The notes beneath the pieces were generated by a model, which saw nothing but the letters and a program-made list of their open reading frames with translations, made no database searches and was not told the DNA's origin. The translations under genes and the position numbers were made by a program. This document shows positions 11,824 through 53,494 of a stretch of DNA of 64,000 bases, piece by piece (the first letter of the stretch is position 1; every line of letters starts with the position of its first letter). Source of the DNA: Patescibacteria group bacterium (lineage in GTDB: Bacteria; Patescibacteriota; Minisyncoccia; JAHIHE01; JAGLIN01); contig JARGGI010000001.1 in the NCBI GenBank assembly GCA_029210775.1, forward strand, positions 16,493 through 80,492, written 5' to 3'.

Positions 11824-11847
11824 ATTCTGAATCAAGTTCAGAATGAC
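11824..11847. repeat. small hairpin of the TGTCAT-terminus repeat superfamily (ATTCTGAA-tcaag-TTCAGAATGACA)
   Basis: 8-bp inverted repeat ending in AGAATGACA; same motif at 20471-20479, 34568-34578, 38315-38341, 38405-38423. Confidence 0.6.
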
Positions 11848-11869
11848 ATTTATAATTTAATAGAAAAAT

Positions 11870-12967
11870 ATGAAAAAAAAAGTGAATAGAAAAAAGCAGA
11901 AAGCTGACAATTTAGAAGAAATAAAAAATCTTTTAGAGAAGCTTTCTAACGCTAATGGAATTTCGGGGCATGAGAAGGAGATCAGAACCATTTTAAAAGA
12001 AGAATTGAAATCGTATGTTGATCAAATCAATACGGATAAGCTGGGAAATTTAATTGCTACCAAAAATGGCAAGGGACCGTCGGTGATGATTGCGGCACAT
12101 ATGGATGAAATTGGATTTATGGTTAAATACATAGATGATAATGGCTTTATCTATTTTGCTAAATCGGGTGGCTGGTTTGATCAGACACTTTTAAATCAAA
12201 GGGTTATTATCCATTCCAAAGAAAAACATATTACTGGTGTGGTTGGATCAAAACCACCACACATTATGAAAGCAGAAGAAATGAAAAAGATCATTGAGAT
12301 TGGCGAGATGTATATTGACATTGGCGCAAAGGATAAAAAAGACGCTGAAAAAATTGGTATTCAAGTAGGAGATACGATAACTTTAGATAGAAAATTTAAG
12401 AGTTTAGCTAATAATATAGTAACAGGCAAGGCATTTGATAATCGTGCTGGATTAGTTATGTTAGTTGAAGCGGCGCGAATTTTAAGCAAAAGCAAAGTGA
12501 ACGCAAAAATACATTTTGTTGGTACGGTACAAGAGGAGGTCGGCTTAAAAGGTGCAAGGACTTCTGCCTATAGTTTAAATCCCGATGTGGCTATTGCGAC
12601 TGATGTAAATATTCCTGGCGATCATCCAGGTGTAGAAAAAAAACATTCCTCCATTGAAATGGGCAAAGGACCTTCTATAACTGTTAGTGACGCCGAAGGA
12701 GTCGGTATTGTTGTTGCGGAATCTGTTTTAGATTGGATGAAGGGAACAGCTCAAAAGGCTAAAATACCTTATCAACTTAGTGTCACTGAAGGCGGAATGA
12801 CCGATGCGGCGATAATTAATATGACCAAACATGGAATTCCATCTGGTGGAATTTGTGTTGCGACAAGGTATATTCATTCTCCGGTTGAAGTTTTAGATTT
12901 GAAAGATCTTGAAGAGTGTGCGAAATTAATAGCCGAGTGTGTGAAGTCGGCATATAAATATTTTTAG
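11870..12967 (+). CDS. M42 family aminopeptidase (FrvX/endoglucanase-like)
   Basis: AAHMDEIGFMV, GKAFDNRAG, metal-ligand blocks typical of M42. Confidence 0.8.
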   Translation: MKKKVNRKKQKADNLEEIKNLLEKLSNANGISGHEKEIRTILKEELKSYVDQINTDKLGNLIATKNGKGPSVMIAAHMDEIGFMVKYIDDNGFIYFAKSGGWFDQTLLNQRVIIHSKEKHITGVVGSKPPHIMKAEEMKKIIEIGEMYIDIGAKDKKDAEKIGIQVGDTITLDRKFKSLANNIVTGKAFDNRAGLVMLVEAARILSKSKVNAKIHFVGTVQEEVGLKGARTSAYSLNPDVAIATDVNIPGDHPGVEKKHSSIEMGKGPSITVSDAEGVGIVVAESVLDWMKGTAQKAKIPYQLSVTEGGMTDAAIINMTKHGIPSGGICVATRYIHSPVEVLDLKDLEECAKLIAECVKSAYKYF

Positions 12968-12993
12968 GATATTATCATAAAATGGTTTGAATA

Positions 12994-13030
12994 AAAAAGG
13001 ACAGTCCTTTGCATAAGGACTGTCCTTTAG
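12994..13030. terminator. bidirectional hairpin terminator between convergent genes
   Basis: AAAGGACAGTCCTT-tgcat-AAGGACTGTCCTTT 14-bp stem, A-run upstream, T-run downstream. Confidence 0.65.
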
Positions 13031-13112
13031 TGTTTTTTTGTTTTATACCACAATATTAACCAGCTTCCCTTTCACAAAAATCATTTAATATTATTTCACA
13101 TAAATTTGACCC
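13019..13112. repeat. duplicated copy of leuS 3' end/terminator region (Y) plus 27-bp repeat X; partners at 14311-14415
   Basis: 13019-13083 about 90% identical to 14354-14415; 13084-13112 matches 14311-14337. Confidence 0.8.
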
Positions 13113-14305
13113 AAGAAATTTATAAGATGCTTAAAATATACTTTATGATCTTCATGTCTTATTATTTCGCCTTCTTTTTGAGTTCTAAACCATTTTAGCC
13201 TATCTATTTTTATATTATCAAACCTTTTTGCCCATTTTGTTTCAACTCCCAGGGCAACAGCATAGGGAAGGTATTTTGAGAATGTTTCAACTTTCTCTTC
13301 ATCCATTCTGAATCGTTCGGCAGTTTGAAGATAGTCTTTAAATCCCAACCATTTGGCGCGTTCTTCAGCACCGAGTTTGGTATATTGTGATCTAAAAATA
13401 ACGTTTTCTTTTTTTGAAAATAAAGAGTTTTTGTATTGTGGACCTATGATGCTATTTGTTTTTGATATTAATGAAATAGATTGTCCTTTATAATCATTGC
13501 GATATGCGTCAACAGATCTTTTTAATTGTGTGGAAATATTTTCAGCTTCTTTTCTAGAAAAATATTTTCTATTTTCATATCTGAATAAAATTAATCTAAT
13601 ATCAATTTTTTTTAATTCACACCAATGTATAAAATGTTTTGATATATTATACTCATATTTTAGATAATATAGTCGCTTAAGCTGGTCTAAAATGAAATTT
13701 GATAATTTTTCAGTATCTATTATTATATTTTTAAGAGGGAAAACATCAACATTATTGTTTTTAAAATTGAATATGCAATCTGATATTAATCGGTCGCATG
13801 TATCAATAGCGTCAAAGCCTTTATTTTTGATTAGGTAGTATTTAAAACGACCTCTTTCAATTTTTTCGTCAATTGCCAAATGTCCCTTTATTAATAGGTG
13901 AAAAATCGTTGCGTAAAATTCGCGCTTGCCAATACTTTTATCTGTTAAATAACCGGCAATCGCAGGGTGAATATTTGATGGCGGTTGGTAAATTGGAATT
14001 ATTGTGGTATTTTTTAGAAGATGTTTTTCTTGTAAATAGTATATTCCATATTCCTTAATAAAAATTATTATTGCACATGCTAATAAAATAAATATATAAA
14101 GTAAAATTATATAAATGTTATTGTTAAATAAAGAAATTTTTATAAAAATCAAAGAATATAATTCATCAATTGGTAAAATAAGCAATGAAATAAGCACCAA
14201 AACACTAAAATATAAATATATAAATCTTTTGGCATATTTAGGTTTTTTTAAAAAAAGAAAATATATAATGGCAATTATATAAAGGAAGATTATTATATCA
14301 TTCAT
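13091..14305 (-). CDS. DUF2207-like predicted membrane protein (404 aa)
   Basis: N-terminal TM cluster, C-terminal FSKYLPYAVALGVETKWAKRF resembling DUF2207 C-terminus. Confidence 0.6.
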   Translation of the reverse strand: MNDIIIFLYIIAIIYFLFLKKPKYAKRFIYLYFSVLVLISLLILPIDELYSLIFIKISLFNNNIYIILLYIFILLACAIIIFIKEYGIYYLQEKHLLKNTTIIPIYQPPSNIHPAIAGYLTDKSIGKREFYATIFHLLIKGHLAIDEKIERGRFKYYLIKNKGFDAIDTCDRLISDCIFNFKNNNVDVFPLKNIIIDTEKLSNFILDQLKRLYYLKYEYNISKHFIHWCELKKIDIRLILFRYENRKYFSRKEAENISTQLKRSVDAYRNDYKGQSISLISKTNSIIGPQYKNSLFSKKENVIFRSQYTKLGAEERAKWLGFKDYLQTAERFRMDEEKVETFSKYLPYAVALGVETKWAKRFDNIKIDRLKWFRTQKEGEIIRHEDHKVYFKHLINFLGQIYVK

Positions 14306-14310
14306 ATATC

Positions 14311-14415
14311 TAATATTATTTCATATAAATTTGGTCCTTCTTTAAAGGATAGTCCTTTAGTGTTTTTTTGTTTTATATCACTATATTAACCAGCCTTCCT
14401 TTCACAAAAATCACT
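14311..14415. repeat. X' (14311-14337) and Y' (14354-14415) repeat copies; Y' contains the last 12 codons of leuS
   Basis: see 13019-13112. Confidence 0.8.
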
Positions 14416-17400
14416 TTTCTAACTTCTTTGCCTGCAATCCATTTCTGAATCTTTTCGCTTTCAAGAGCGAGTTTTTTTGCTTCTTCTTCTGAAATATTAG
14501 CTGGGACTTTAATTTGATCACGGAGCTTTCCGTTGATTTGGATGACAAGATTTATTTCGGTTTCTTTGATAAAAAGGGGATTAATTTTTGGCCATGATTG
14601 CAAGTGAATACTTTTCTTTTCTCCTAACATTTCCCAAAGTTCTTCGGTAATATGTGGAGCAAAAGGGGACAATAAAATTAAAAATATTGAATACTGGGAA
14701 TTAAATATCATTTTTTCTTTTTCCATCTCATTCAATAAAATCATCATTTGAGAAATCGCAGTATTAAATTTCATGTTTTCAATATCTTCTGTTACTTTCT
14801 TGATAGTTTTATGCAATAATGATTCTATTTTTTGATCTTGTAGGAATGCAGAATCTTGCGTACTTTTTTGCAAATATTCAATCAATTTATCAGTAGCTTG
14901 TTTTCTGTGATCAAATCTATATTTATCTTCACTGGAACATTCGCCAAAAGATTTATTTAAAACATTTGGCATAAAAATAGAATCGTAACCGAAACCTCGT
15001 GTTCCGCGTGATTTTTCTAAAATTTCTCCTTCGCATTTTCCTTCAAATTGATTGTATTTTTTATCTTTTGGATTATATAAGGTAACTACGGATTGAAAAT
15101 AAGCAGACCTATCTTTTTTATCTACAAGTTCTTTAAAAATTTTTTGATATGCTTTTTTATAATCACCTTCTGAATATCGGCTTGAAAAAACTCCTGGACG
15201 TCCATCAAGCGTGTTAATACACAAACCACTATCATCAGCAATTGTTAGATAGCCAGTTTTTTGGGCATAATATTTTGCTTTAATTAAAGAATTTTCTGCA
15301 AAGGTTTTTCCATTTTCTTCAGGTTCTTCAATTGATTTATCAATGTCTTTTAATGAAATTATATTAAAATTAGCAAGATGATTTTTTAGTTCTTTTAGTT
15401 TTCCTTGATTATTTGTAGCGATTAATATTATTTTATTTTTATATGGGAACGCAAAATCTTGTGTTTCTACATTAGAATTCACAATATTATGTTTTTTTAT
15501 CTTTTTTTGCATATTCCAAACTCTTTCCAAAAATCTGTTCATTCCAATTAAGCTTGTCGTGTTCCATGGAATGGCGTCGCCATAAGGACCCATAAACATT
15601 TCATAAAGGCGAAGTGTATCCGACCCATATTGCTTGATGACATCATCGGGATTAACAACATTTCCGCGTGACTTGCTCATCTTTTGTCCATTTTCGGCGA
15701 GAATCATTCCATGCGATCTTCTTTTAGCGTATGGCTCACGAGTATTTACATATCCGAGATCAAACAAAAATTTATGCCAAAAACGAGAATATAATAAATG
15801 CAAAGTAGTGTGTTCCATACCGCCATTGTATAAATCAACTGGCATCCAATACTCAATTTTCTTGCGTGAAGCAAATTCTTTTTTGTTTTTTGGATCTAAA
15901 TATCGCAAGAAATACCAACTTGATCCCGCCCAATTTGGCATCGTGTCCGTTTCTCTTTTCGCCTCGCCTTTGCATTTTGGGCATTTCACTTCTACCCATT
16001 TCTTTATATTAGCAAGAGGAGATTCTCCCGTTTCTGTCGGTTCATAATTTTTGACATTTGGAAGCTCAAGTGGGAGATTCTTTTCATTTAATGGAATATT
16101 TTTAGTTATGTTTATAATTTCAAATTCCCAACCGACAAGACCGTTTTTTTGAATTTTATTAAGATAATCATTTGTAAAACTAAAACATTTTTCAAGTTCT
16201 TTAAAACTTCTAATCTTTGTGTTTGGGATAATCTTTTTTATCAAATCTTTTTTATTAAACAATTTTTCCAAGTTTTCAAAATTATAAACTTTATTAATTT
16301 TTATAACCTCAAACTCATTCGTATTTTTATTGTTTATTTTAATAAAATCTCCAATTTTAATATTACCAAAATATTTATCTTTTTCTTCAGGATTAAAAGC
16401 TCTTGTTTCAACAGTTTTTTTTCTGCAAATAATTTGATCCCAAATTTTATTTACTCTGAAATTTAATTCCATTTTAATGTTCAATTTTTTCAAACCACAT
16501 TCCTTGCATTTCACAATCGGAATTGGTTCACCCCAATAATGCTGGCGTGAAAAAATCCAATCTCGCAATTTGAAATTTACAGCCTTTTTACCAAGTTTAT
16601 TTTTTTCTAACCAAGCAGTGATTTCTTTTTTTGCTTCGGGAGTCTCAAGACCATTTAGAAAATCTGAATTAACATTTACACCATCTTCTTTAAAACAACC
16701 AGCTTTGCCTATTAAGCGTTGCCACAGCATTTTTTGATTGGATAGATTTAAAAAATCATCCATCTTGTCAGAATCGATCCAGACTGTATTATGGTTTATT
16801 GTTTCTTCTTCGCTTGGTTTTTCCAAACTTTCATCTTCCAATTTAAAAAGTAATCCTTGTTCAACTGAATAGCGGTTCTCATCTTTATGTCTATTAAAGA
16901 AAGTATTGTATTGTTCGCTTCCCAGATGACGGATAAATTTCAAATTTTTATAGCCAGTTTCTTCCTGAATTTCTCTTTTTCCTGCTTCTTGGGCAGTTTC
17001 TCCTTCTTCAATTCCACCAATGATTCCCGTGTGCCAATTAAATTTTTTCCAATCAAGACAAAGATATTTATCCTCATTCCAATGCTTCAGAAAAGCAATT
17101 ACAATTTTTTGACGTACTGTTTTTTTCTCAGGTCTAATCACATCATCTCCACTAAAAACCTTAAATAATGGAGCAACTACTTCTTTAATCTTGATACCAA
17201 ATTTCTTTGCAAACTCAAAATCTCTTTCATCGTGAGCAGGAACTGCCATAATGGCGCCAGTGCCATAAGAAGAGAGAACATAGTCCGCAATCCAGATTGG
17301 AATTTCTTCGTTACTTGCTGGATTTATTGCTTTTATACCTTTCAATTCAACGCCAGATTTTTCTTTGGCTAAATCAGTTCTGTCTAAATCAGATTTATTT

Positions 17401-18437
17401 TTTGCTTGTAAAATATATTTTTCAACTTCACTGTAGTTTTCAATATTATCTTTTAATTTTTCAATTAAACTGTGTTCGGGCGATAAGACCATATAAGTAC
17501 ATCCGAAAAGAGTGTCGGGGCGAGTGGTGAAAACTTTAATGCTACTGTCATTGCAAGCGGAGTGAAGCAATTCTGAATTTATAGGCGAAACCTGTATTTG
17601 ACTGGATTGCTTCGTCGCTTTGCTCCTCACAATGACAGAAAATTTAATTTCTGCTCCCTCTGACTTTCCAATCCAATTAATTTGTTGGGTTCTGATTTTA
17701 TTTAAATAATCAACCGAATCTAAATCTTTAATTAATCTGTCAGCATATTTTGTAATTCTCAGCATCCATTGTCTCATTACTTTTCTTTCTGCTAAGGCAC
17801 CACATCGCTCGCACGCACCATTAACGACCTCTTCATTAGCTAGTCCAATTTTGCAACTGGGACACCAATTAATCGCCATCTCTTTTTCATAAGCAAGTCT
17901 ATGATTATCAATAAATTCTTTTTTTTCAATTTCATTCAAATTTTTTGGAATTTTTAAATCTTCAATCGGTTTTGCTTTATCTGATTTTTTATCATAAAAA
18001 CTATTAAACAGTTTCAAAAAAATCCATTGCGTCCATTTATAATATTCTATGTCTGTAGTGTTAATTTCTCGCGACCAGTCAAAACTAGGTCCATAACTTT
18101 TTATTTGGCGTGTAAAATTTTTAATATTATTCTTCGTGACAACTTTTGGATGAGTTTTTGTTTTGATGGCAAAATTTTCCGTAGGCAAACCAAAAGCATC
18201 CCAGCCAATTGGGAACATTACATTATATCCACTCATCCTCCTTTGGCGGGCAACAATGTCAATGGCAATATGACTCCGAAGATGTCCTACATGAAGCCCT
18301 GCTCCAGATGGATATGGAAATTCAATTAAACAATAATACTTTGGTTTTTTTGTAAAATCTTTTGCATCATATATCCCACTTTTATCCCATTTATCTTGCC
18401 ATTTTTTTTCAATATTTCTAAAATTGTATTGTTTCAT
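14373..18437 (-). CDS. leuS: leucyl-tRNA synthetase, 1354 aa, with embedded Nudix, ASCH-like and HAM1/ITPase domains plus a MITE-derived in-frame insert
   Basis: HIGH=HVGH, CP1 TTRPDTLFG, KMSKS present, C-terminal anticodon-binding region; perfect Nudix box GGIEEGETAQEAGKREIQEETGY; HAM1 blocks ATNNQGKLKE / ADDSGLCINTLDGRPGVFSSRY / RGTRGFGYDSIF. Confidence 0.9.
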   Translation of the reverse strand: MKQYNFRNIEKKWQDKWDKSGIYDAKDFTKKPKYYCLIEFPYPSGAGLHVGHLRSHIAIDIVARQRRMSGYNVMFPIGWDAFGLPTENFAIKTKTHPKVVTKNNIKNFTRQIKSYGPSFDWSREINTTDIEYYKWTQWIFLKLFNSFYDKKSDKAKPIEDLKIPKNLNEIEKKEFIDNHRLAYEKEMAINWCPSCKIGLANEEVVNGACERCGALAERKVMRQWMLRITKYADRLIKDLDSVDYLNKIRTQQINWIGKSEGAEIKFSVIVRSKATKQSSQIQVSPINSELLHSACNDSSIKVFTTRPDTLFGCTYMVLSPEHSLIEKLKDNIENYSEVEKYILQAKNKSDLDRTDLAKEKSGVELKGIKAINPASNEEIPIWIADYVLSSYGTGAIMAVPAHDERDFEFAKKFGIKIKEVVAPLFKVFSGDDVIRPEKKTVRQKIVIAFLKHWNEDKYLCLDWKKFNWHTGIIGGIEEGETAQEAGKREIQEETGYKNLKFIRHLGSEQYNTFFNRHKDENRYSVEQGLLFKLEDESLEKPSEEETINHNTVWIDSDKMDDFLNLSNQKMLWQRLIGKAGCFKEDGVNVNSDFLNGLETPEAKKEITAWLEKNKLGKKAVNFKLRDWIFSRQHYWGEPIPIVKCKECGLKKLNIKMELNFRVNKIWDQIICRKKTVETRAFNPEEKDKYFGNIKIGDFIKINNKNTNEFEVIKINKVYNFENLEKLFNKKDLIKKIIPNTKIRSFKELEKCFSFTNDYLNKIQKNGLVGWEFEIINITKNIPLNEKNLPLELPNVKNYEPTETGESPLANIKKWVEVKCPKCKGEAKRETDTMPNWAGSSWYFLRYLDPKNKKEFASRKKIEYWMPVDLYNGGMEHTTLHLLYSRFWHKFLFDLGYVNTREPYAKRRSHGMILAENGQKMSKSRGNVVNPDDVIKQYGSDTLRLYEMFMGPYGDAIPWNTTSLIGMNRFLERVWNMQKKIKKHNIVNSNVETQDFAFPYKNKIILIATNNQGKLKELKNHLANFNIISLKDIDKSIEEPEENGKTFAENSLIKAKYYAQKTGYLTIADDSGLCINTLDGRPGVFSSRYSEGDYKKAYQKIFKELVDKKDRSAYFQSVVTLYNPKDKKYNQFEGKCEGEILEKSRGTRGFGYDSIFMPNVLNKSFGECSSEDKYRFDHRKQATDKLIEYLQKSTQDSAFLQDQKIESLLHKTIKKVTEDIENMKFNTAISQMMILLNEMEKEKMIFNSQYSIFLILLSPFAPHITEELWEMLGEKKSIHLQSWPKINPLFIKETEINLVIQINGKLRDQIKVPANISEEEAKKLALESEKIQKWIAGKEVRKVIFVKGRLVNIVI
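17545..17638. repeat. MITE-like palindromic element (TGTCATT family) inserted in-frame inside leuS CP1
   Basis: CTGTCATTGCAAGCGGAGTGAAGCAATTC...GGATTGCTTCGTCGCTTTGCTCCTCACAATGACAG; encodes SVIVRSKATKQSSQIQVSPINSELLHSACNDSS between EIKF and VFTTRPDT. Confidence 0.8.
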
Positions 18438-18688
18438 AATTTTTGAATAAAAAAACTAACTTTAAATTAAGAGGATAGATTTAGTTAATATTTATTATTT
18501 ATCTTCTAAAAATAAATCTTTATTTTCGTGTTCTTCTTTTTCAAATTCATTAATTTCACTATCTTTATCATTATTCCCATAAAAATCAAACATACTTTCG
18601 TTTCTCATATTTTTGATTTAATAATAAAAATAAGATAATCTATATTTATAGTTTATCTTATAATCGCTAAATTGACAAGAAATTCCAA

Positions 18689-19534: not shown

Positions 19535-19546
19535 AAATTAATATTA

Positions 19547-20323: not shown

Positions 20324-20363
20324 AATTTTAGCTTTTTAATTTGTAACTTTATAAATTTTTAGT

Positions 20364-20479
20364 TGTCATCTTGAATGGAATGTAACGACCGATAGGATTC
20401 TGTGCTTAATATCGTAAATTATATGTGATAGTTTTGAGCAAATAGTTTCGGGATTCTATCACTTCGCTTCAGAATGACA
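20364..20479. repeat. MITE-like element (TGTCAT termini) between tatD and metG
   Basis: TGTCATCTTGAATGG...GGGATTCTATCACTTCGCTTCAGAATGACA; right arm matches arm A consensus TGTCATTSYGARCGAAG..AATCCC. Confidence 0.6.
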
Positions 20480-20487
20480 ATATTATT

Positions 20488-22131: not shown

Positions 22132-22232
22132 ATTATTAAAATAGTTATAATAACTTTAAAAGAATCAGCATCCTAGACATGAAGTAGATTTTATATCAAA
22201 GCCTGATAAATTTGATAATGTATTCAAATTAA

Positions 22233-22898: not shown

Positions 22899-22906
22899 AT
22901 ATTTTT

Positions 22907-23965: not shown

Positions 23966-24017
23966 GTTTTTGTTTAATGTTATTATTTAAAAATTTTTAT
24001 TAAAAAATATAAAATAT

Positions 24018-25280: not shown

Positions 25281-26067
25281 TTAATTATAGATAAAAATTA
25301 AATCTCTTTTGTTTAAGAGATTTTATCCTTTGGAGATCGGTTAATCTTGATTCTAATTTACTTATAATCACAGATCTTAATGTTTTATCTCCTTTTTTAT
25401 AAAAATTATTTTCCAAGGCTTTTTTTAATACTCTATACTAATTTTTAAGTCATTTATTTTAAGATCGATCATTTCTATATTTATATTCAAACAACTTTCA
25501 TTGCTCATCTTTTTTTCAAGTTCAGCTGATCTATTTTTTATATATTTTAGTTTTATTTTTTTCTCCCTTTTTTTAATAATAGCCAGCCTGGCGTATGCTC
25601 TATCTAACATTTCATTATAATTCATAGCCTCCTTCTCATTTTGTTCTATTTCGTCCTGTCTTTTTTTAAGAGATTAATAATTAATTTTAAAACTCTCAAT
25701 CTTACACCTCCACATTTATAAATAAAGTTTATCACTTATAACAATAAAAGGCAATAATAATCCAAAAGGCCGGCGACTAGCAGTTTCTAAATAATACGAG
25801 CTATAGATTTTGCTTACTATTATTTTTAAATAATAGTGAGGAGAGAGATTTGCAAAATATTTAGTCCGATTAGAACACCGCTAATTCACCGACCTTTTGG
25901 CAATAATAATCTAAATATATTGTAATTTTATTATATAAATTATATCAAAATTGTCAACATAAAATTATCATTTTAATAAATGTGTTGAACTAATACACAT
26001 AAGGCTCTTTGTCAAAACGTGTGGTGGCTAACAGCTAACATGACTTTAGATATATAGTTTTGTATTA

Positions 26068-26233
26068 ATGAGAATATTAATTTATAGTTGTCGTTCCTAC
26101 CATAGGGAGGAATCGCTCTTATCTGGGAATTGATATTTGATATCATTTTTTATGGGAGTGGTGTGAATTGTTAATTTATCAATATAATTTTACAAATTCT
26201 TTAGTTATCCACCACAGTTATTAGTGTAGAGCC
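26068..26233 (+). repeat. intergenic repeat family C, copy 2
   Basis: see 9556-9722. Confidence 0.8.
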
Positions 26234-30924: not shown

Positions 30925-30990
30925 GCTTATCTCTGTCATTGCGAGGAGGTACGACGTGGCAATCCCGCAAATTTGTCATCCGGTCCGAAA
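30925..30990. repeat. solo arm of TGTCATT MITE family
   Basis: TCTCTGTCATTGCGAGGAGGTACGACGTGGCAATCCCG. Confidence 0.7.
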
Positions 30991-31778
30991 GATATATTCT
31001 TCAAGCGGTTGAAGTTATTTAAAATAAATTTAGGATAACTACACCGCTATCCCCATCTAAGAATGAGAAATTAACTTTCATGCTGTTTTCATTATAAATC
31101 ATTTTATAAATATTATCCATAAAAAAATAAGTATTTATTTTGATCAATATATTTTTATTTTGAATTACGAAATGCAATGAAATTAAAATTGACAGACCTG
31201 TGTATAAGCTAACTTTATAAAAGTGACACAAATTTCAGAAAATAAATAATCCTTATTTTAAAAGATAAAACTTGTGGATAACTTTGAATTTGACATGTTC
31301 TTTGAAAGGAAGATAATAGAGACGTGGCTATGTCTTTATAAAAGGCAAAAAGCATTGTATTAACCGCAAGGGGAGGGTCTTGATTTTTATGTAAACAAAG
31401 AAAAGAATCAATTAATTTTTAATAAAAATTTTCCAACAAGGAAAAGAAAAATTGATTCAAATAACCTAATACTTGATTGAAATAGTGCGAAAAGATCAAC
31501 CAAACGAAATTCTTGTTTAGATTTTGGTTGTTTTTTGTACACTAAAATTTCTTTTTACAAATGCTGTTTAATGTTTTGTCACTTTGTTAAAGACGAATAA
31601 AAAAATAAATAAGTTTAATATAAAAAATTAAAGGTCGAAGTTGTTTGTCTAAGTTTTAATAATTTGCTATTATTTTGGATTTAATTTTAAGTATCTGTGA
31701 TAGATTCCAGATCAAGTTCGAAATAATAAAAAAGGGTGAAAAATTTAGACGAGTAACTCTAAAAATTTTAATAACTTT

Positions 31779-31906
31779 GAATTACGAAATGTCTTTCTAA
31801 GTCAAACAAAGAATCCCGAAATTACGCACACAGATCTTAATGAAGGGATTATTATGTGATTTTAATTCTTACAATGACAACAAAATTTTGTATTTTGTAA
31901 TTTAAA
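31779..31906 (+). repeat. intergenic repeat family D, copy 2, about 95 bp upstream of vWA gene
   Basis: see 3334-3465. Confidence 0.7.
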
Positions 31907-33449: not shown

Positions 33450-33842
33450 ATATTGTTATTGCGAGCGAAGCGTGGCAATCATGCGACTATGTCTGTCATT
33501 GCGAGCGAAGCGTGGCAATCCCGAAATAAATTCAGAAAGTTATAATATATCGTTTCGTGAATTTAGACTTGAGATTGCTTCGTCGCTATGCTCCTCGCAA
33601 AGACAATGTTATTCCTCTGTCATTGCGAGCGAAGCGTGGCAATCCCGAAATTAGTTTCAGAAAACTGTAATATATCGTTTCGTGAATTTAGACTCGAGAT
33701 TGCTTCGTCGCTATACTCCTCGCAAAGACAAACACAAGAAAAAAAAGTTTTATGTTAATAAACTCGAGATTGCTTCGTCGCTATACTCCTCGCAAAGACA
33801 GAGATAGATTGTCACATCGCTATGCTCCTCGCAACGACAAAC
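33450..33842. repeat. array of about 4 tandem/partial copies of the TGTCATT MITE family (about 110-120 bp units)
   Basis: alternating arms TGTCATTGCGAGCGAAGCGTGGCAATCCCGAAA and GATTGCTTCGTCGCTATRCTCCTCGCAAAGACA separated by a conserved core ...CGTTTCGTGAATTTAGACTYGAG. Confidence 0.85.
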
Positions 33843-34461: not shown

Positions 34462-34595
34462 ATCCTAATGTTGTTCTAAATTTATTTCTGAATCTATTGA
34501 GTAGTAGAGTTTGTCTATGGTTTATTTCACAATAACAGATGTAATAGTTAGAAGATCCTGAACTAAATTCAGAATGACGATATAAAACGAAAAAA

Positions 34596-36539: not shown

Positions 36540-36550
36540 CAAATAAACAA

Positions 36551-36643
36551 TGTCATTTCAGAATTTATTCCAAAGCAACAGCTTTTGAATAGAAATCTGA
36601 GATAGAGCTTACCTTGTTTTATTAAAACTTTTCTGGAATGACA
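36551..36643. repeat. MITE-like element, TGTCATTTCAGAA...TTCTGGAATGACA termini
   Basis: 13-bp terminal inverted repeats with one mismatch. Confidence 0.6.
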
Positions 36644-36673
36644 ACAACAGTGACAATTAATAGAATCTAAGCA

Positions 36674-38230: not shown

Positions 38231-38298
38231 TTTTAAAAAATACAATGATTTAGGTGGTTTTTGATTTGGTCTATTTACACATTTAAAACAGTGTAAAG

Positions 38299-38423
38299 TG
38301 TCATTCTTTTATAATGTCATTCTGAATTTATTTCAGAATCAATCGTCCCTTACACTTTGTTCTCAAGATAAATCACAGACAAACCAATAATCTAAAAGAT
38401 CCTGAAACAAGTTCAGGATGACA
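38299..38423. repeat. MITE-like element of the TGTCAT superfamily immediately upstream of the 932-aa gene
   Basis: TGTCATTCTTTTATAATGTCATTCTGAATTTATTTCAGAATCA...GATCCTGAAACAAGTTCAGGATGACA. Confidence 0.6.
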
Positions 38424-38474
38424 CTTAAAAACAATAAAATTATTTTTATATATATTATTAATTAATTTACACTT

Positions 38475-41273: not shown

Positions 41274-41290
41274 AATAGTTATATATTTGC

Positions 41291-41319
41291 AAAAACCCGG
41301 TTGACTTGATCGGGTTTTT
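41291..41319 (+). terminator. rho-independent terminator of adhesin gene
   Basis: AAAAACCCG-gttgacttgat-CGGGTTTTT. Confidence 0.7.
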
Positions 41320-41329
41320 GTATTTGTTT

Positions 41330-41702
41330 TCTTGCGATGACATAGGTTTGTCTTTGCGAGGAGGAACTCGGGATTGCCACACTTCGCTCGCAAAGACAGA
41401 TAAAAAAACTATACGAAATTAAATTTGGGATTGCCGCTCTTCGCTCGCAATGACAGAGGAATAACATTGTCATTACGTGGAGGAACTCGGGATTGCCACG
41501 CTTCGCTCGCAAAGACAGAGGAATAACATTGTCATTGCGAGGAGGAACGACGAAGCAATCTTGAGTCTAAATTCACGATACGATATATTACAGTTTTTTG
41601 AATTTAAATTTGGGATTGCCACACTTTGTTCACAAAGACAGATAAAAAAACTATACGAAATTAAATTTGGGATTGCCACACTTTCCTCGCAATGGCAAGA
41701 GC
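41330..41702. repeat. second array of TGTCATT MITE family, opposite orientation to the 33450-33842 array
   Basis: 41530-41640 is the reverse complement (about 85% identical) of the unit at 33600-33730; additional short-form units TGTCTTTGCGAGGAGGAACTCGGGATTGCCACACTTCGCTCGCAAAGACA. Confidence 0.85.
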
Positions 41703-41821
41703 AACGGTCAAAATAACAAAAAAAGGGAAATAATATTCTAAACGATATTTCTTTTTAAAAAAATTAACAAAAACGGAAAAATAGAGTAAAATTAAATTAG
41801 ATTAATTTAAATCTTTTAAAT

Positions 41822-42382: not shown

Positions 42383-42551
42383 CTATAAAATGCAATAAGA
42401 ATGTCATTTTGAGCTTGCCCGTCCTGTTAGGCAGGCTTGTTGAAAAATGGTAAGCATGCTAAATTTATTATTGTTAACCAATCCAGTCTGCTGTCAGGCT
42501 GGCTTCACTAAACAAACTTTCTGTTTTGTAATTCAAAATTAAATAAATTTT

Positions 42552-43694: not shown

Positions 43695-43709
43695 AATATA
43701 TATATATAT

Positions 43710-44813: not shown

Positions 44814-44850
44814 TAAAAGAAAAACTAATTTATTAATCAACTTTGAATAA

Positions 44851-46455: not shown

Positions 46456-46467
46456 TTTATTAAAAAT

Positions 46468-46674
46468 ATGGAAAAAATTAATCTAAGCGAATCACTTAAA
46501 AAACTTGAAAAAATTGTTGATTGGTTTGAGACTCAAGAAGAAATAGATATTGAAAAAGGTCTTGAAAAAGTAAAAGAAGGCGTAAAACTTATTAAATCAA
46601 GCAAAGAACGATTGAAAAATGTTGAGAACGAATTTGAGGAAGTGAAAAAAGAGATAGATAGTGCCCAAGAGTAA
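46468..46674 (+). CDS. xseB: exodeoxyribonuclease VII small subunit
   Basis: 68-aa helical protein LEKIVDWFE..EIDIEKGLE directly downstream of xseA. Confidence 0.8.
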   Translation: MEKINLSESLKKLEKIVDWFETQEEIDIEKGLEKVKEGVKLIKSSKERLKNVENEFEEVKKEIDSAQE

Positions 46675-46806
46675 CAAATAGTATTTTCAAATTTAAATTT
46701 AGTGTATAATGAAATTAGGTTGTAGCTGTTTATTTTTTTAGAATTATCAAGATGCGTTTGGTGTCCTTCTAAATTTATTTGATAAGCTTAAAGTAACTTA
46801 TATTTT

Positions 46807-47991: not shown

Positions 47992-48019
47992 TTATATTAT
48001 TTAATTTTAAAATATTTAT

Positions 48020-48919
48020 ATGATATCTTGGATTTTAATCACAATAATTGCACATTTTTTAAACGCTACTGTCTACATTATAGACAAACACATTGTATCA
48101 AACACGACCCTAAAGCCAGTGGCCTATACATTTTATTCGGGCGTTTTTCAAATATTATTTATCGCCCTCATTCCAATTATAGGATTTACAATGCCAAAAA
48201 CTGAATTTTTTATACTTGGAATTTTAAATGGAGCTTTATTCATTTTGGCACTCCTAATTTTCTACAAAGCCTTAAGACTAAGCGAAGCATCAAGAGTTAT
48301 TCCTGTTGTTGGAGCTACAATTCCAATTTTTACTGTCATTATATCTTATTTTATTTTGGGAGAGTTTTTGGCTGTTAAACAATTTTTAGCTTTTTCATTC
48401 TTTATTATTGGTGGTTTCTTATTATCTTCAAGATTAGATCACGGTCATTTCAAGATGATTAAAGGATTTTTATTGGCCACCGTTGCTGGTTTTCTTTTTG
48501 CCCTGTATTATACTTTGATAAAATATTTATATCTGCACTTGAGTTTTTTTGATGGATTTATTCTTTTTCAAATTGGTGGTTTTGTGGGAGCAATATTTTT
48601 GCTTGTTTCAAAGAATAATCGAGAGAAAATATTTTCAACACCCAAAACAATCAAAAAGGGGACAGCCTATTTATTTGTTCCAAATAAAATTCTTGCAGCT
48701 ACTGCGGCTATCATGATTTTTTACGCAATTTCAATTGAAGGCAGTACAGTTTCTATAATTAATTCCTTGCAATCAATTCAATATGTTTTTATATTATTTT
48801 TTGCAATAATACTCTCCAAAAAACTTCCTAATTTATACAAGGAACAAATAAATAAAAAAGTTATCATGCGAAAAATAATTGCTATGATAATAATTGGAAT
48901 CGGACTTTTCATAATTTAA
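48020..48919 (+). CDS. EamA/DMT-superfamily-like 10-TM transporter
   Basis: Two-repeat polytopic topology. Confidence 0.5.
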   Translation: MISWILITIIAHFLNATVYIIDKHIVSNTTLKPVAYTFYSGVFQILFIALIPIIGFTMPKTEFFILGILNGALFILALLIFYKALRLSEASRVIPVVGATIPIFTVIISYFILGEFLAVKQFLAFSFFIIGGFLLSSRLDHGHFKMIKGFLLATVAGFLFALYYTLIKYLYLHLSFFDGFILFQIGGFVGAIFLLVSKNNREKIFSTPKTIKKGTAYLFVPNKILAATAAIMIFYAISIEGSTVSIINSLQSIQYVFILFFAIILSKKLPNLYKEQINKKVIMRKIIAMIIIGIGLFII

Positions 48920-48939
48920 AATTAATTAATTTCAAAAAA

Positions 48940-49959
48940 GTGAAATTTTACAAGAAAATAATAAAAAAACACAAAAAAATTATATTATTACTTTCTATCT
49001 TAATTGGATTGGCTATTTTTTTTGCAATTCCAAAAAATGGCGGAAATGTAATTTATGGGGTTACTTTTTCAAAACCATTTGCAGAACATCTCGGATTGGA
49101 TTGGAAAGCAACCTATTTAGCGCTTTTAGATGATGCAGGAGTAAAAAGAGTTCGCCTGCCGTCATATTGGACAGAAATTGAATCGCAAAAAGGAGTCTAT
49201 AATTTTAAAGATCTGGACTGGCAAATTCAGGAAGCTCAAAAACGAGACGTGAAAATCATTTTGACTCTTGGACAAAAACAACCAAGGTGGCCCGAGTGCC
49301 ACATTCCAAAATGGGCTGAAGACTTAAATGAACACGAAAGACAAACAAAGCTTATTGATTTTATATCCAAAGTCGTAGAACGCTACAGAAATAGGGAAAA
49401 TATAATCAATTGGCAAATTGAAAATGAACCCTTTTTGCCTTTTGGAGAATGTCCAAAATTTAATAAAAACTTTTTTGACCGTGAAGTTGCACAAGTTCGT
49501 TTACTAGACAGCAGATCTCTTATAATTTCTGATAGTGGGGAACTTAGTACTTGGTATAGAGCGTCAAGCAGGGCTGATATCCTTGGAACAACTTTATATA
49601 GAATTGTTTGGAATGATACAGTTGGTTATGTACACTATCCCATCACATCAATTGCTTACAGATTAAAAGCGGCTATTATTATGCTTATGACAGGTGTCGA
49701 TAAAATTATTATAGTTGAATTACAAGCAGAGCCGTGGGGCCCTAAAATGATTATTGAAACACCACTCCATGAACAATATAAGTCAATGAGTCCAGAACAA
49801 TTTCAGAAAAATATTGAATTTGTAAAACATGTTGAATTTTCTGAAGCATATCTTTGGGGAGGGGAATGGTGGTATTGGCTCAAAACAGTCAAGGGTGATG
49901 ATCGAATTTGGAATCAAGCAAGAAAAGTTTTTTCCGAATCTGCAAAACTTGAGAAATAA
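48940..49959 (+). CDS. TIM-barrel glycoside hydrolase, clan GH-A (GH5-like)
   Basis: Signal anchor; WQIENEP acid/base motif; ELQAEPW. Confidence 0.55.
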   Translation: MKFYKKIIKKHKKIILLLSILIGLAIFFAIPKNGGNVIYGVTFSKPFAEHLGLDWKATYLALLDDAGVKRVRLPSYWTEIESQKGVYNFKDLDWQIQEAQKRDVKIILTLGQKQPRWPECHIPKWAEDLNEHERQTKLIDFISKVVERYRNRENIINWQIENEPFLPFGECPKFNKNFFDREVAQVRLLDSRSLIISDSGELSTWYRASSRADILGTTLYRIVWNDTVGYVHYPITSIAYRLKAAIIMLMTGVDKIIIVELQAEPWGPKMIIETPLHEQYKSMSPEQFQKNIEFVKHVEFSEAYLWGGEWWYWLKTVKGDDRIWNQARKVFSESAKLEK

Positions 49960-49997
49960 TAGTAAAGACAATTTAATTAAAAAAAATCAAATTATCT

Positions 49998-50918
49998 ATG
50001 ATAAATATATATAAAAAAACACTAAAGGACTCAGAGCTTAAAAACTTGAAGAACTTTGAAGAAGGAAGTTGGGTTTCTGTTGTCAATCCAAATATTGATG
50101 AAATTAAAATCCTTGAAAAGAAACTCGATTTAGATCTTACTATTGTTGAAGATGCGTTAGATGAAAATGAAATATCTCGAATTGAAAAAAATGGAGAAAA
50201 ATTTTATATAATTATTCGCTTTCCATTTCAAAGTGATTTAAATGCTATGACAATGCCCTTGTTAGTTGCTATTACAGAAGATCATATTGTAACGCTATGT
50301 AAAGAAAAAAATGAACTTATAGAAAATATTATAAGAAAAGGAAACTCATTTTACACAACACATAAGACAAATTTTATATTAAGAGTTATTTTGGAGGTAT
50401 TTAACAATTATGACTTACATCTTAATAAAATATTAAAAGACATAAAAATCAAAAAAATAAATTTGAATAAACTTGAAAATAAAGATATTTTGTTTCTTGT
50501 TCAAGAAGAAGAAACTTTAAATGATTTTATTTCTTCCCTTGTTCCTATTATAAATAATCTTGAGAGAGTTTTGAGTGGAAGATATATCCCAATATATGAA
50601 AAAGACAAAGATATGATTGAGGATTTGTTTATGGACAGCAAACAAACACTCGAAATATCAAAAACTGCACTTAAATCAATGAAGAATATACGAGAAGCCT
50701 ATTCAACAATTTTAACAAATGAACTTAATAAAATTATGAGAATTCTAACAGTCGCAACAATTATATTAACAGTACCAACAATAATTTCAAGTATATATGG
50801 AATGAACATATCATTGCCAATACAAAATAATTCTTCAGCTTTTCTAATTATAATTTTAATTATAATTTTATTTTCTTTATTATTTTTTATGATAATAAAG
50901 AAAAAAAAGTGGATGTAA
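49998..50918 (+). CDS. corA: CorA-family Mg2+/Co2+ transporter
   Basis: C-terminal two TM with YGMN motif (SIYGMNISLP). Confidence 0.85.
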   Translation: MINIYKKTLKDSELKNLKNFEEGSWVSVVNPNIDEIKILEKKLDLDLTIVEDALDENEISRIEKNGEKFYIIIRFPFQSDLNAMTMPLLVAITEDHIVTLCKEKNELIENIIRKGNSFYTTHKTNFILRVILEVFNNYDLHLNKILKDIKIKKINLNKLENKDILFLVQEEETLNDFISSLVPIINNLERVLSGRYIPIYEKDKDMIEDLFMDSKQTLEISKTALKSMKNIREAYSTILTNELNKIMRILTVATIILTVPTIISSIYGMNISLPIQNNSSAFLIIILIIILFSLLFFMIIKKKKWM

Positions 50919-50972
50919 TTAATTTTTCTTTATCATATAAAACATAAAATTTTAATAATTAAAGACAAAATT

Positions 50973-51287
50973 ATGATTATTACAACAACAGATAATATTT
51001 CTGGCAAAGAGATTATCGAGACAATTGGATTGACAAAAGGAAATACTGCCCGAGCAAGAAATGTTGGTCGCGATATTTTTGCTTTTGCAAAAAACATCGT
51101 TGGAGGGGAAGTTTTGGAATATACCAAACTCATTGCTGAATCAAGAAAGCAAGCAATAGACAGAATGAAGGAGGATGCAGAAAAAATGGGCGCAAATGCC
51201 ATTGTTGGTTTGAGGTTTTCAAGCACAACAATTAGCAGTGGTATTTCGGAAGTTTTAGTTTATGGAACAGCAGTAAAAATTAAATAA
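50973..51287 (+). CDS. YbjQ/UPF0145 family protein
   Basis: MIITTTDNISGKEI...GANAIVGLRFS. Confidence 0.75.
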   Translation: MIITTTDNISGKEIIETIGLTKGNTARARNVGRDIFAFAKNIVGGEVLEYTKLIAESRKQAIDRMKEDAEKMGANAIVGLRFSSTTISSGISEVLVYGTAVKIK

Positions 51288-51642
51288 ACAAAACCGTGGA
51301 AGAAAATCTAAATTTTTTTGTAAAATGTCTATTGCTAATATAATTAGCGCTATTTATGTTTTTTATATATGCGTTAATTATAAAATTTTTTGAAAGACTA
51401 AAAGAACCTAAAAACGATAAATATAAAAATCTCAAAAAATAATTCATTAAAAATCTAAATATTTATCTAATATTTCAAGCCTATATAGTGGTATATTTAT
51501 ATAATATAGTCACTATTGACTAAATGTTAGATTGCCTGTAAGATGAAGGTGTAACTTAAAAATAAATAAATAGCCTTCCAGGGGCTGTTTTAAAAAAATC
51601 AAATTTGTATACAATATTAATAAATACTTACAACTCAAAACT

Positions 51643-51837
51643 ATGAATATTATAAAAGAAATAAAAAAATATATTACAGAAGTAAAAAATGAAGCAAAGA
51701 AAGTCAGCTGGCCAAGTAAAAAAATAACAATAAAAGACTCTGTTATTGTTATCGGCATAAGCCTTGCAACTGCAGCATTTTTAGGCGGAGTAGATTATAT
51801 TCTAACTATAGTTATCGAAAAAGTTGTTGTAAATTAA
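51643..51837 (+). CDS. secE: preprotein translocase subunit SecE
   Basis: 64 aa, single C-terminal TM, precedes nusG. Confidence 0.8.
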   Translation: MNIIKEIKKYITEVKNEAKKVSWPSKKITIKDSVIVIGISLATAAFLGGVDYILTIVIEKVVVN

Positions 51838-51875
51838 GTTTAAAAAATATCCATTTTAATTATTAAGTAAAAAAT

Positions 51876-52421
51876 ATGCCAAAGCAAACAGCGGATTTTG
51901 GAAAAAATTGGTATGTCTTGCACACATATTCAGGTTATGAAGATAATGTTTGCAGAAACCTCAAACAAAGAATTGAATCCATGGGCATGGAAGAAAAAAT
52001 ATTTGATGTGCTTGTTCCAAAAGAAAAAAAGATAAAAATCAGAAACGGGAAAAGAAAAGTCATAGAAGAAAGAATTTTTCCAGGGTATGTAATGGTTGAG
52101 ATGATTGTAAATGATGACTCATGGTATGTTGTTCGAAATACTCCAAATGTTACTGGATTCGTTGGATCTGGTACAACACCAACTCCAATATCAGAAGAAG
52201 AAATGATTACACTAAAAAAAAGAATGGGAGTAAAAGAACCGAAATACAAGATTGATGTTTTGCAAGGCGATATGATAAAAATCATAGACGGACCATTCAA
52301 AGATTTCGACGGTAAAGTAGATGGAATTGATGAAGAAAAGGGCAAAGTCAAGATTTTAGTGCAAATGTTTGGACGCGAAACTCCACTTGAATTAGATTTT
52401 TTACAAATTAAAAAAATGTAA
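51876..52421 (+). CDS. nusG: transcription termination/antitermination factor NusG
   Basis: NWYVLHTYSGYE NGN domain, C-terminal KOW. Confidence 0.9.
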   Translation: MPKQTADFGKNWYVLHTYSGYEDNVCRNLKQRIESMGMEEKIFDVLVPKEKKIKIRNGKRKVIEERIFPGYVMVEMIVNDDSWYVVRNTPNVTGFVGSGTTPTPISEEEMITLKKRMGVKEPKYKIDVLQGDMIKIIDGPFKDFDGKVDGIDEEKGKVKILVQMFGRETPLELDFLQIKKM

Positions 52422-52449
52422 AGTAATTAAATTAATTTAAATTATCAGT

Positions 52450-52875
52450 ATGGCAAAAAAAATTCAAAAATTAGTTAAACTTCAAATACCAGCAGGAAAA
52501 GCAAATCCAGCTCCACCAATTGGACCTGCACTTGGTCAAGCTGGAATCAATATCCAAGAGTTCTGCACGAGATTTAACAATGAGTCAAAGGATCTTGGAA
52601 ATGACATTATTCCAGTTGAAATTTCTGTATATGAGGATAAATCCTATACATTTATAATGAAAACTCCTCCAGCATCAGCGCTTTTAAAAAAGGCTGCTGG
52701 TGTCCAAAAAGGATCAAAAGAACCACAAAAAGACAAGGTTGGGAAAGTAACAAAAGCACAACTCCAAGAAATTGCAGAATTGAAAATGAAAGATTTAAAT
52801 GCAAATACAGTTGAAGGTGCGATGAACATTATCGCAGGAACTGCAAGAAATATGGGAATTAAAATTGAAGAATAA
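52450..52875 (+). CDS. rplK: 50S ribosomal protein L11
   Basis: [23 protein letters not shown]. Confidence 0.95.
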
Positions 52876-52902
52876 TATATTTATTTTAAAAACATCTAAA
52901 CT

Positions 52903-53370
52903 ATGGAAGAAAAAAATATAATATCAAACAATTCAAAAAAACATAAAATTATTCTTTTGATTTTAGTTTTGCTTTCTTTATTTATTATTACTTTCGTCTT
53001 AAACTCTAACACGGCTTCCAAAGATGATTATGATAGTATTGATAAGGTTGAAAAATCAGATGAGAAAAAATTTTCTGTGACTTTAAGGATTGATAATGGA
53101 AAGGGAGATGAAAAAAAGGAATATGAGCTAAATGAAATTTCAAAGAAAACAACTGTATTTGACATTTTAAACAAAAATGTCACAATAAAATATAATAATG
53201 ATTATGATTACGGAGTTTTTATAGAAAGTATAGATGGAATAAATAACGGAGATGAAGGAAAATATTGGCAATATTATATCAATAATAAGCTTGGGGATGT
53301 TGCAGCTGACAAAAAAACGATGCAGGAAGGCGATATAGTTGAGTGGAGATTTGAAGAAGATTCGTTTTAG
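52903..53370 (+). CDS. hypothetical signal-anchored protein (155 aa) inserted between rplK and rplA
   Basis: ORF with N-terminal TM. Confidence 0.5.
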   Translation: MEEKNIISNNSKKHKIILLILVLLSLFIITFVLNSNTASKDDYDSIDKVEKSDEKKFSVTLRIDNGKGDEKKEYELNEISKKTTVFDILNKNVTIKYNNDYDYGVFIESIDGINNGDEGKYWQYYINNKLGDVAADKKTMQEGDIVEWRFEEDSF

Positions 53371-53390
53371 TTATATTTGTAATTATTGAA

Positions 53391-53494
53391 TGTCATTACG
53401 AAGGAGTTGCAACAACTGAAGCAATCCCAGAACTATGTGCAGAGAGTTTAATCACGAAATTACTTCATCGCCCTGTAGGACTCTTCGCAATAAC
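53391..53494. repeat. MITE (TGTCATT family) copy between rplK and rplA region
   Basis: TGTCATTACGAAGGAGTTGCAACAACTGAAGCAATCCC...AATCACGAAATTAC...CTCTTCGCAATAACAG, same orientation as 41530-41640 unit. Confidence 0.75.

Follow-up and report, generated by a model that had tools for sequence, protein, structure and literature searches.

What are the small palindromic elements with TGTCAT...ATGACA ends that recur in a 64,000-nt stretch of the genome of a Patescibacteria group bacterium (assembly GCA_029210775.1, contig JARGGI010000001.1, positions 16,493 to 80,492 of the forward strand; hereafter the window, meaning this stretch at its full length), and what drives their spread? The evidence presented below makes it quite probable that they are CGTC/TGTC-tagged repetitive extragenic palindromes (REPs), now described as Ssn-related motifs (SRM), and that they are acted on by Ssn, a small nuclease of the GIY-YIG family. 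The class of repeats has been known since 2013 (Di Nocera, De Gregorio and Rocco, BMC Genomics 2013; PMC3733652) and its partner enzyme since 2025 (Chenal et al., Nat Commun 2025; PMC11893778). New here are the patescibacterial host, a variant with an ATTGC stem, an insertion hot spot in a loop of leucyl-tRNA synthetase (LeuRS) and the comparison of syntenic loci with and without an ssn cassette.

Presence and distribution of the elements

An initial annotation, made from the sequence alone, had listed a series of loci as members of one palindromic superfamily. Motif counts, pair counts, a hidden Markov model (HMM) and folding all confirm that palindromic elements are present at these coordinates beyond chance. 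In the window, TGTCATT occurs 34 times as compared with 16.1 ± 3.9 in shuffled sequences, and is thus about twice as common as expected, while TGTCAT...ATGACA pairs 20-140 nt apart number 5 for an expectation of 0.68. Arms of exact form, defined as GTC, a 5-nt stem, a loop, the reverse-complement stem and C, were counted 22 times (10.3 ± 3.0 in shuffles). Moreover, an HMM trained exclusively on 384 arms from other genomes recovered 15 window arms at E < 1e-3, the best at 8e-9, and a repeat finder combined with local blastn revealed GC-rich arms of 26-46 nt with 72-100% identity, despite a GC content of about 30% for the 64-kb window, as well as whole units of 113 nt with 82-93% identity. One rival, named in the initial annotation itself, is that the motif is a mere frequent k-mer of an AT-rich genome, devoid of inverted-repeat structure. 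The relaxed definition of an arm (6-nt stem, one mismatch) is indeed noisy in AT-rich DNA, with 43 matches as against 18.7 in shuffles. However, GC-rich arms of 26-33 nt recur at 76-100% identity in a genome of 30% GC, the HMM reaching E 8e-9 was trained on other genomes, and whole units fold with z about -3.5; within the window chance is excluded, and virtually no weight can be given to this reading. In total, the window contains at least 16 loci and about 30 arms:

3345-3370, plus strand: degenerate arm TGTCTTTCTGAGCGAAATAAAGAATC, within the 138-nt repeat 3324-3461 in the 16S-23S spacer
9577-9602, plus strand: arm TGTCGTTCC-loop-GGAATC, at the head of the 167-nt repeat 9555-9721
11241-11323, plus strand: type-B arm (11241-11266) with conserved interior TTTGTCTGTGATTTATTT, left flank of the 138-aa open reading frame (ORF) 11356-11772; same place in the syntenic contig L203
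11820-11848, minus strand: type-B arm AAAGATTCTGAATCAAGTTCAGAATGACA, right flank of the 138-aa ORF; 8-bp stem, z -2.5
17546-17637, minus strand: type-A inverted pair, in frame in the LeuRS ORF 14373-18437, encoding SVIVRSKATKQSSQIQVSPINSELLHSACNDS; z -3.6
20364-20479: hybrid inverted pair with ATCTT and ATTCT stems, GAAGCGAAGTG loop and CCCGAAA tail, 9 bp 3′ of the stop codon of the methionyl-tRNA synthetase (MetRS) gene
26089-26114, plus strand: second TGTCGTTCC...GGAATC arm, in the repeat 26067-26233
30934-30964, plus strand: solo type-A arm TGTCATTGCGAGGAGGTACGACGTGGCAATC; HMM E 4.5e-8
31790-31815, plus strand: second degenerate arm, in the 138-nt repeat 31769-31906
33454-33842: array of 7 type-A arms in alternating orientation, with full units at 33494-33606 and 33618-33731; unit z -3.5
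34469-34578: type-B inverted pair, left arm decayed (TGTTGTTCT...), right arm CGTCATTCTGAATTTAGTTCAGGATC
36551-36643: 93-nt long hairpin, a divergent member with ends TGTCATTTC...GGAATGACA; z -3.5; no significant similarity to other copies
38315-38423: type-B inverted pair, the best preserved of its type; additional TGTCATTC tag at 38299; z -2.7 and -3.6 for its arms
41330-41702: array of 7 or more type-A arms, some of them truncated; in opposite orientation to the 33.5-kb array
42402-42450, plus strand: possible solo arm, uncertain, with TGTC, an ATTTT stem and a GC-rich inner hairpin; z -1.45; no similarity match
53391-53494: degenerate type-A inverted pair; left arm HMM E 0.39, z +0.4

The list of loci given by the initial annotation was largely correct, but the bounds of several loci needed correction and at least five copies had been overlooked (11241-11323 and the arms at 3345-3370, 31790-31815, 9577-9602 and 26089-26114). 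The element placed at 34515-34580 exists, but these bounds take in only the right half of the full unit 34469-34578; 30925-30990 contains one arm without a second; 53391-53494 is an inverted pair, but a degenerate one, as the E value of its left arm indicates; 36551-36643 is a good long hairpin whose membership of the family is weak; and the "possible relative" at 42401-42520 amounts at most to one arm-like hairpin. Two further proposals did not hold. The "shared core" CGTGAATTTAGACT is not general, being confined to three near-identical units at 33556, 33681 and 41564, and a density of about one element per 6 kb, which had been considered remarkable, is ordinary for this class of repeats, copies of which run into the hundreds per genome in Neisseria, Rickettsia, Wolbachia and Sphingomonas (PMC11893778, PMC3733652).

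Every intergenic copy has genes of one and the same strand on either side and starts 9-100 bp past the upstream stop codon. Seven of the loci are gathered in the interval 30.9-42.5 kb. The arrays 33454-33842 and 41330-41702 are mutually inverted (102 nt, 85% complementary) and bracket a 7.5-kb cluster whose products are predicted to be secreted or to lie at the surface and carry VWA, SpaA/SdrD-B-like and Fn3-associated domains, together with an S24/S26 signal peptidase; smaller copies occupy three of the four spacers within this cluster. Such an arrangement of the arrays could permit inversion of the surface-protein segment.

Some copies are associated with promoter-like sequences. The two 167-nt repeats, 9555-9721 and 26067-26233, are 92% identical, and both display a TTGCAA or TTGACA box after the arm, upstream of the next gene. 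At 36638-36666 and 38418-38446, an outward ATGACA end stands 17 nt before a -10-like hexamer, immediately upstream of the next gene, and the units ending there might provide the -35 box.

Anatomy and folding of the arms

The arms are oriented hairpins in which a TGTC tag at the 5′ end is followed by a stem whose first bases are AT, a loop and the tail AATC(C); the tag is present in all well-preserved arms, as TGTC or, at 34579, as CGTC. Arms occur alone, as inverted pairs of 92-125 bp with the tags outward, and in the two arrays of about 380 bp. Type A is GC-rich, with an ATTGC stem (TGTCATTGCGAGCGAAGCGTGGCAATCCC; inverted partner with a longer loop, GATTGCTTCGTCGCTATGCTCCTCGCAAAGACA), and type B is an AT-rich hairpin with an ATTCT or ATCCT stem (TGTCATTCTGAAtttatTTCAGAATC or TGTCATCCTGAActtgtTTCAGGATC). 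As single-stranded DNA (ssDNA), type-B arms fold cleanly into hairpins whose stem (ATTCTGAA) has 8 bp and whose loop has 5 nt, at z -2.5 to -3.6. The type-A arm combines a 5-bp ATTGC/GCAAT outer stem with a 10-16-nt loop containing a GCGAAGC-type mini-hairpin, and complete type-A units are long hairpins with z -3.5.

The proposal of one superfamily of small palindromes with TGTCAT...ATGACA ends survives this analysis. Types A and B share a common ground plan, both kinds of stem flank the same GIY-YIG family in other genomes (see below), and in the hybrid copy 20364-20479 the stem is of type B but the loop and tail are of type A, which supports a single superfamily. No target-site duplication is visible at any copy.

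Association with a GIY-YIG gene

A pattern scan (TGTCATTGCGAG-N8-22-GCAATC) over one genome per species, 596 Gb in all, returned at least 120 loci in most bacterial phyla; the matches listed span Alpha-, Gamma- and Deltaproteobacteria, Chloroflexota, Bacteroidota, Cyanobacteria, Planctomycetota, Firmicutes, Nitrospirota, Patescibacteria and others. By our own arithmetic, roughly 260 chance matches are expected for 18 specified bases in 596 Gb, so that the number of matches is by itself no proof and the telling features are those outside the pattern. Among the matches listed, 140 of 149 loops end in GAA, GTG or GCG, which the pattern does not demand; an inner stem of at least 4 bp is present in 48% of the loops, as compared with 16% of shuffled loops, and either a GC-rich inner stem or a GCGAAGC-type mini-hairpin is seen in many of the loops. 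In the same set, an inverted partner TCGCAATGAC (at most one mismatch) lies within 200 nt of 81 of 143 arms, for an estimated chance level below 1%, and the median unit length is 91 nt. The inverted pair is thus the usual form of the repeat found across bacteria. Searches of reference collections added nothing: the elements had no match in Rfam at gathering thresholds or at E <= 1, their six-frame translations had no relevant match in NCBIfam (Rickettsia palindromic element (RPE) domain models were not confirmed in the library), blastn of the 33.5-kb array against 72,556 plasmids found no match, and full-text literature searches with the DNA strings and the translated peptides returned nothing relevant.

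The partner gene emerged from arm pairs of wider spacing. Among the matches listed, all four pairs 300-700 bp apart (loci L035, L072, L097 and L108) enclose an ORF of about 96 aa encoding a GIY-YIG protein; the four proteins share about 50% mutual identity across phyla and all match PF01541. In L097 (2470-3090), the arm-flanked gene is itself split by another palindromic insertion of about 200 bp. The association also appears in the reverse direction, in 80 metagenomic loci encoding homologues of this ORF that were searched for an arm of exact form within 150 nt of the gene. A forward arm was found upstream in 47 of 79 loci, an inverted arm downstream in 42 of 78 and arms on both sides in 30 of 77, the background being 0.31 arms per kb with both strands counted. 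On the downstream side, arm and stop codon are adjacent, the median gap being 2 nt. Since the flanking stems, which are ATTGC (34 upstream, 34 downstream), ATTCT, ATCCC, ATTCC and ATCCT, include ATTGC, ATTCT and ATCCT, both arm types of the window are among those that flank the GIY-YIG family. For the associated protein, Pfam gives only the generic PF01541, and its size and single-domain architecture agree with cd10448; neither a specific NCBIfam model nor a relative in the PDB was found for it.

A syntenic locus with the nuclease cassette

Evidence from the same lineage comes from the 138-aa ORF 11356-11772, which has a type-B arm on either side. Its homologue P0122 is encoded in the syntenic Pacebacteria contig L203, 3′ of the same class II tRNA synthetase gene (glycyl-tRNA synthetase). 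In L203, the left arm and interior known from the window come first; ORF135 and an inverted arm follow, then a forward arm TGTCCTTCTGAACTTGATTCAGAATC, the GIY-YIG gene of 96 aa (P0138) and a last arm AAAGATTCTGAATCAAGTTCAGAATGACA, which is identical letter for letter to window positions 11820-11848. At this site the window keeps the arm but has no nuclease cassette. A search with P0138 gave 7341 homologues at E <= 1e-10, many of them assigned by name to Pacebacteria or Patescibacteria. A type-B pair sharing the interior motif AAATCACAGAC also comes after the GIY-YIG gene of another locus, L207. In addition, the interior of the window pair 34469-34578 aligns modestly with the leader of the L203 GIY-YIG gene, a likeness that faintly hints at an origin of this pair by internal deletion.

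The 138-aa ORF was also considered as a mobilizing gene and rejected: it encodes a conserved Parcubacteria hypothetical protein, distant homologues of which (L205, L206) have no arms. Between the homologue of this ORF and the M42 peptidase region, L203 (1900-3300) and L202 (6047-8275) carry ssn, a 143-aa ORF and an M24 peptidase gene, while the window (11772-11870) passes from the ORF through a single arm straight to M42; judged by this gene order, the window segment could be a deletion with an arm at its junction.

Copies in an essential gene and turnover between relatives

The unit 17546-17637 lies within the 1354-aa LeuRS ORF (minus strand), in the editing domain, where it adds a 32-aa insert and reads F/SVIVRSKATKQSSQIQVSPINSELLHSACNDS/SIKVFTTRPDT. 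In P0003, P0011, P0013, P0014, P0017 and P0021 the same loop has only about 10 residues. P0002, P0005-P0009 and P0037 carry VIA...PRND inserts of differing length, which are other arm variants in translation: VIASEVKQSR (P0006) and VIASKAKQSR (P0037) are each one residue off VIASEAKQSR, encoded by GTCATTGCGAGCGAAGCGAAGCAATCCCG. At the DNA level, the junctions TTT/TC-TGTCATTG...CAATGACA-G/T are common to the window and L202, with differing inner arms, and the site is empty in L201. The spacer between MetRS and TatD behaves likewise, with the hybrid pair in the window, a different type-B pair in L202 and none in L201. Both sites are accordingly filled, empty or otherwise filled in relatives at 74-75% identity.

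In other relatives (among P0006-P0008, P0012, P0015, P0016, P0018, P0019 and P0044), the LeuRS loop contains unrelated palindrome-like peptides such as NTPPTPSQEGN, SPLERGQGCV and NSKSQINSKF, and it may be a general sink for small repeats. The enzyme owes its length of 1354 aa to whole inserted enzyme domains, namely NUDIX (aa 468-559) and an RdgB/Ham1 NTP pyrophosphatase (aa 1004-1188), from the latter of which its NCBI name is taken. Its relatives, of 877-1524 aa, possess the same domains, alpha/beta-hydrolase domains (PF06821, PF00561) or others.

Genomic setting

The window starts with an rRNA operon (16S, tRNA-Ile, tRNA-Ala, 23S, 5S), and the closest relatives are labelled Paceibacterota or Pacebacteria. 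The 16S-23S spacer (1700-4090) measures 2.4 kb and contains tRNA-Ile, tRNA-Ala, one copy of the 138-nt repeat and a 227-aa ORF (2507-3190) with a mechanosensitive-channel transmembrane helix. The 23S match extends over 3059 nt, as compared with 2925 nt for the model, which suggests an insertion.

Origin and spread of the elements

Taken as CGTC/TGTC-tagged REPs acted on by Ssn, the inverted pairs would be gene-less miniatures of the arm-GIY-YIG-arm unit. An Ssn encoded elsewhere in the genome, or formerly present, would recognize the arms in ssDNA during replication, repair or uptake, and nicking of this ssDNA, combined with host repair or recombination, could spread, swap and delete copies. 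These would persist where they are tolerated, be it directly behind stop codons or as an in-frame insert of a LeuRS surface loop. Several points weigh against this explanation. GIY-YIG enzymes are hydrolases of DNA, for which no joining of strands is known. No GIY-YIG ORF was found in the 64-kb window, to which the search was confined, and single type-A arms fold no better than shuffled sequence (z about 0). Furthermore, the published SRM string, HGTCWYN(0-2)YYVSBRHN(0-5)WNVSBRGN(0-2)RNCYNB, has 0 matches in the window on either strand; it misses the window arms because it was built on CCCGCG-type stems from 29 genomes, and it is a search heuristic rather than a definition.

A bolder proposal, which we advance only tentatively and consider rather doubtful, is that arm-ssn-arm represents a true mobile element whose mechanism would form a class of its own, with a GIY-YIG ssDNA nuclease in place of a transposase as driver. 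The pairs of 92-125 bp would then be non-autonomous miniatures, still active in Patescibacteria. Time and again they would enter hot spots such as the loop of the LeuRS editing domain or take one another's place there, thereby reshaping essential proteins.

Other drivers have to be considered. The initial annotation had pointed to an insertion sequence (IS) of the window as a possible mobilizer:

59741-61317: decayed ISNCY-family IS (NF033594) with 35-bp terminal inverted repeats, each containing ATGTCATA twice

The small elements would then be classical MITEs (miniature transposable elements with inverted repeats), deletion derivatives of a DDE IS mobilized in trans by the ISNCY transposase that this IS encodes. 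ATGTCAT is indeed present in both the IS ends and the small elements, but it is all that they have in common: the core of the terminal repeats, AGCAATTTAGAAATGTCATACC, is found in the window only at the two ends of the IS, even with 3 mismatches allowed, and the transposase is broken into three fragments (59857-60003, 60007-60210 and 60309-61259). The lack of target-site duplications at every unit, the fact that the same arms adjoin GIY-YIG genes rather than transposase genes across phyla and the lack of any transposase association for this class of repeats (PMC3733652) likewise argue against MITEs, and a role of this IS is extremely improbable. Spread by a REP-associated tyrosine transposase (RAYT) of the IS200/IS605 type (Y1), as for the REPs and their paired forms (REPINs) of Pseudomonas and E. 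coli, would account for the same architecture of tagged hairpins, inverted doublets of about 100 bp, post-stop sites, arrays resembling bacterial interspersed mosaic elements (BIMEs) and absence of target duplication. Nevertheless, the tag is TGTC/CGTC instead of GTAG, no Y1 transposase ORF is present in the window, RAYT genes are never flanked by CGTC repeats (PMC3733652) and the gene bracketed by arms encodes a GIY-YIG nuclease, which leaves this alternative very little likelihood.

Alternatively, the elements might act chiefly as RNA, as stabilizers of mRNA ends, attenuators or small RNAs, their spread being incidental. The position of all intergenic copies between same-strand genes, close behind a stop codon, is in favour of such a function, and co-transcription has been assumed for REPs of this class (PMC3733652). 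Nonetheless, no Rfam family matches, T-tracts are missing from the arms, the 41.3-kb array has a true terminator ahead of it and Ssn ignores RNA (PMC11893778), while the arm-gene-arm units and the in-frame coding copies would be left unexplained. A primary RNA function thus seems unlikely, but a role at the RNA level would be compatible, as a secondary effect, with the action of Ssn on the tagged repeats. A terminator role of the arms was considered separately and rejected, given the missing T-tracts and the distinct terminator at 41288-41322.

The nature of these repeats has practical consequences for annotation, as the arms yield recurrent spurious peptides (VIASEAKQS, CHCEERSDEAI, LLAMT, PRND) along with real in-frame insertions in essential genes. 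Patescibacteria are thought to rely heavily on DNA uptake. If Ssn indeed restricts or shapes incoming ssDNA as in Neisseria, the system could matter in these bacteria.

Comparison with known systems

The RPEs (Ogata et al. 2000/2002; reviewed in PMC10969869) resemble the present elements in being palindromes of about 100-150 bp, inserted in frame in housekeeping genes, whose peptide occupies a tolerant loop. However, those of the RPE-1 type are longer and unrelated in sequence, and only RPE-4 and RPE-6 are CGTC repeats. The REP/REPIN/BIME-RAYT system likewise displays tagged hairpins, doublets that fold into long hairpins and arrays of mosaic form, its presumed driver being a flanked gene in single copy, but it relies on a GTAG tag and a Y1 HUH transposase with covalent intermediates, in contrast with the TGTC tag and GIY-YIG hydrolase considered here.

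The likeness is closer to the CGTC-tagged REPs, which comprise families CGTC-1 to -4 and include Neisseria dRS3 as well as Rickettsia RPE-4 and RPE-6. They are defined by a CGTC tag (often TGTC, with CCTC allowed), 8-9-bp stems opening with A-T pairs, 4-5-nt loops and a short tail, and occur mostly as inverted dimers near the 3′ ends of ORFs; intragenic in-frame dimers, some of them in tRNA synthetase genes, encode 20-30 aa (PMC3733652). The class was reported from five phyla, with the conclusion that it has no enzyme of its own: it "apparently lacks a dedicated transposase" (PMC3733652). The window elements share with it the CGTC/TGTC tag, the AT-opening stems, the short tail, inverted dimers, the post-stop position and an in-frame copy in a tRNA synthetase gene. 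The inverted-dimer, post-stop form is represented by the pairs at 17546, 20364, 34469, 38315 and 53391 and the arrays at 33454 and 41330. As regards stem and loop, type B conforms, with its 8-bp stem and 5-nt loop, whereas type A, with a 5-bp outer stem and a GCGAAGC-type mini-hairpin, does not do so literally; moreover, Patescibacteria fall outside the five phyla of that study.

As for the partner enzyme, ssnA is a 94-aa single-domain GIY-YIG gene of family cd10448, flanked by the NTS repeat (CGTCATTCCCGCGMAVGCGGGAATCYRG, ground plan CGTCATTCCCGCG..GCGGGAATCYRG) and by related SRM hairpins (PMC11893778); the window arms compared with NTS were TGTCATTCTGAAtttatTTCAGAATC and TGTCATTGCGAGCGAAGCGTGGCAATCC. 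Ssn proteins from three Neisseria species and Wolbachia bind the hairpin only as ssDNA and cut that strand just upstream of the tag, and SsnA, which cuts one strand only, modulates natural transformation (PMC11893778). NTS clusters adjoin surface-protein genes, and the NTS-ssnA-NTS unit has been likened to an insertion sequence and to RAYT/REP (PMC11893778). The present elements agree with this system in the (C/T)GTCAT head, the AATC tail, the flanking of a single-domain GIY-YIG gene of about 95 aa, the clustering at surface genes and the occurrence in many phyla; in particular, the arrays bracketing the surface-protein cluster of the window resemble the Neisseria NTS clusters. They differ in their ATTGC, ATTCT or ATCCT stems and often long loops, and neither Patescibacteria nor gene-less inverted pairs nor in-frame coding copies are mentioned in PMC11893778. 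Arms of these types flank GIY-YIG genes in other genomes, not within the window. There the rates are similar to those published, with 47 of 79 loci upstream and 30 of 77 on both sides as compared with at least one SRM near 71% of ssnA homologues and SRM on both sides of 42% (PMC11893778), and our independent counts reproduce the earlier ones. Since the published string misses the very common ATTGC-stem variant, genome counts of SRM are probably underestimates. The CGTC-REP/SRM class is hereby extended to Patescibacteria (the candidate phyla radiation, CPR), which are named in neither PMC3733652 nor PMC11893778.

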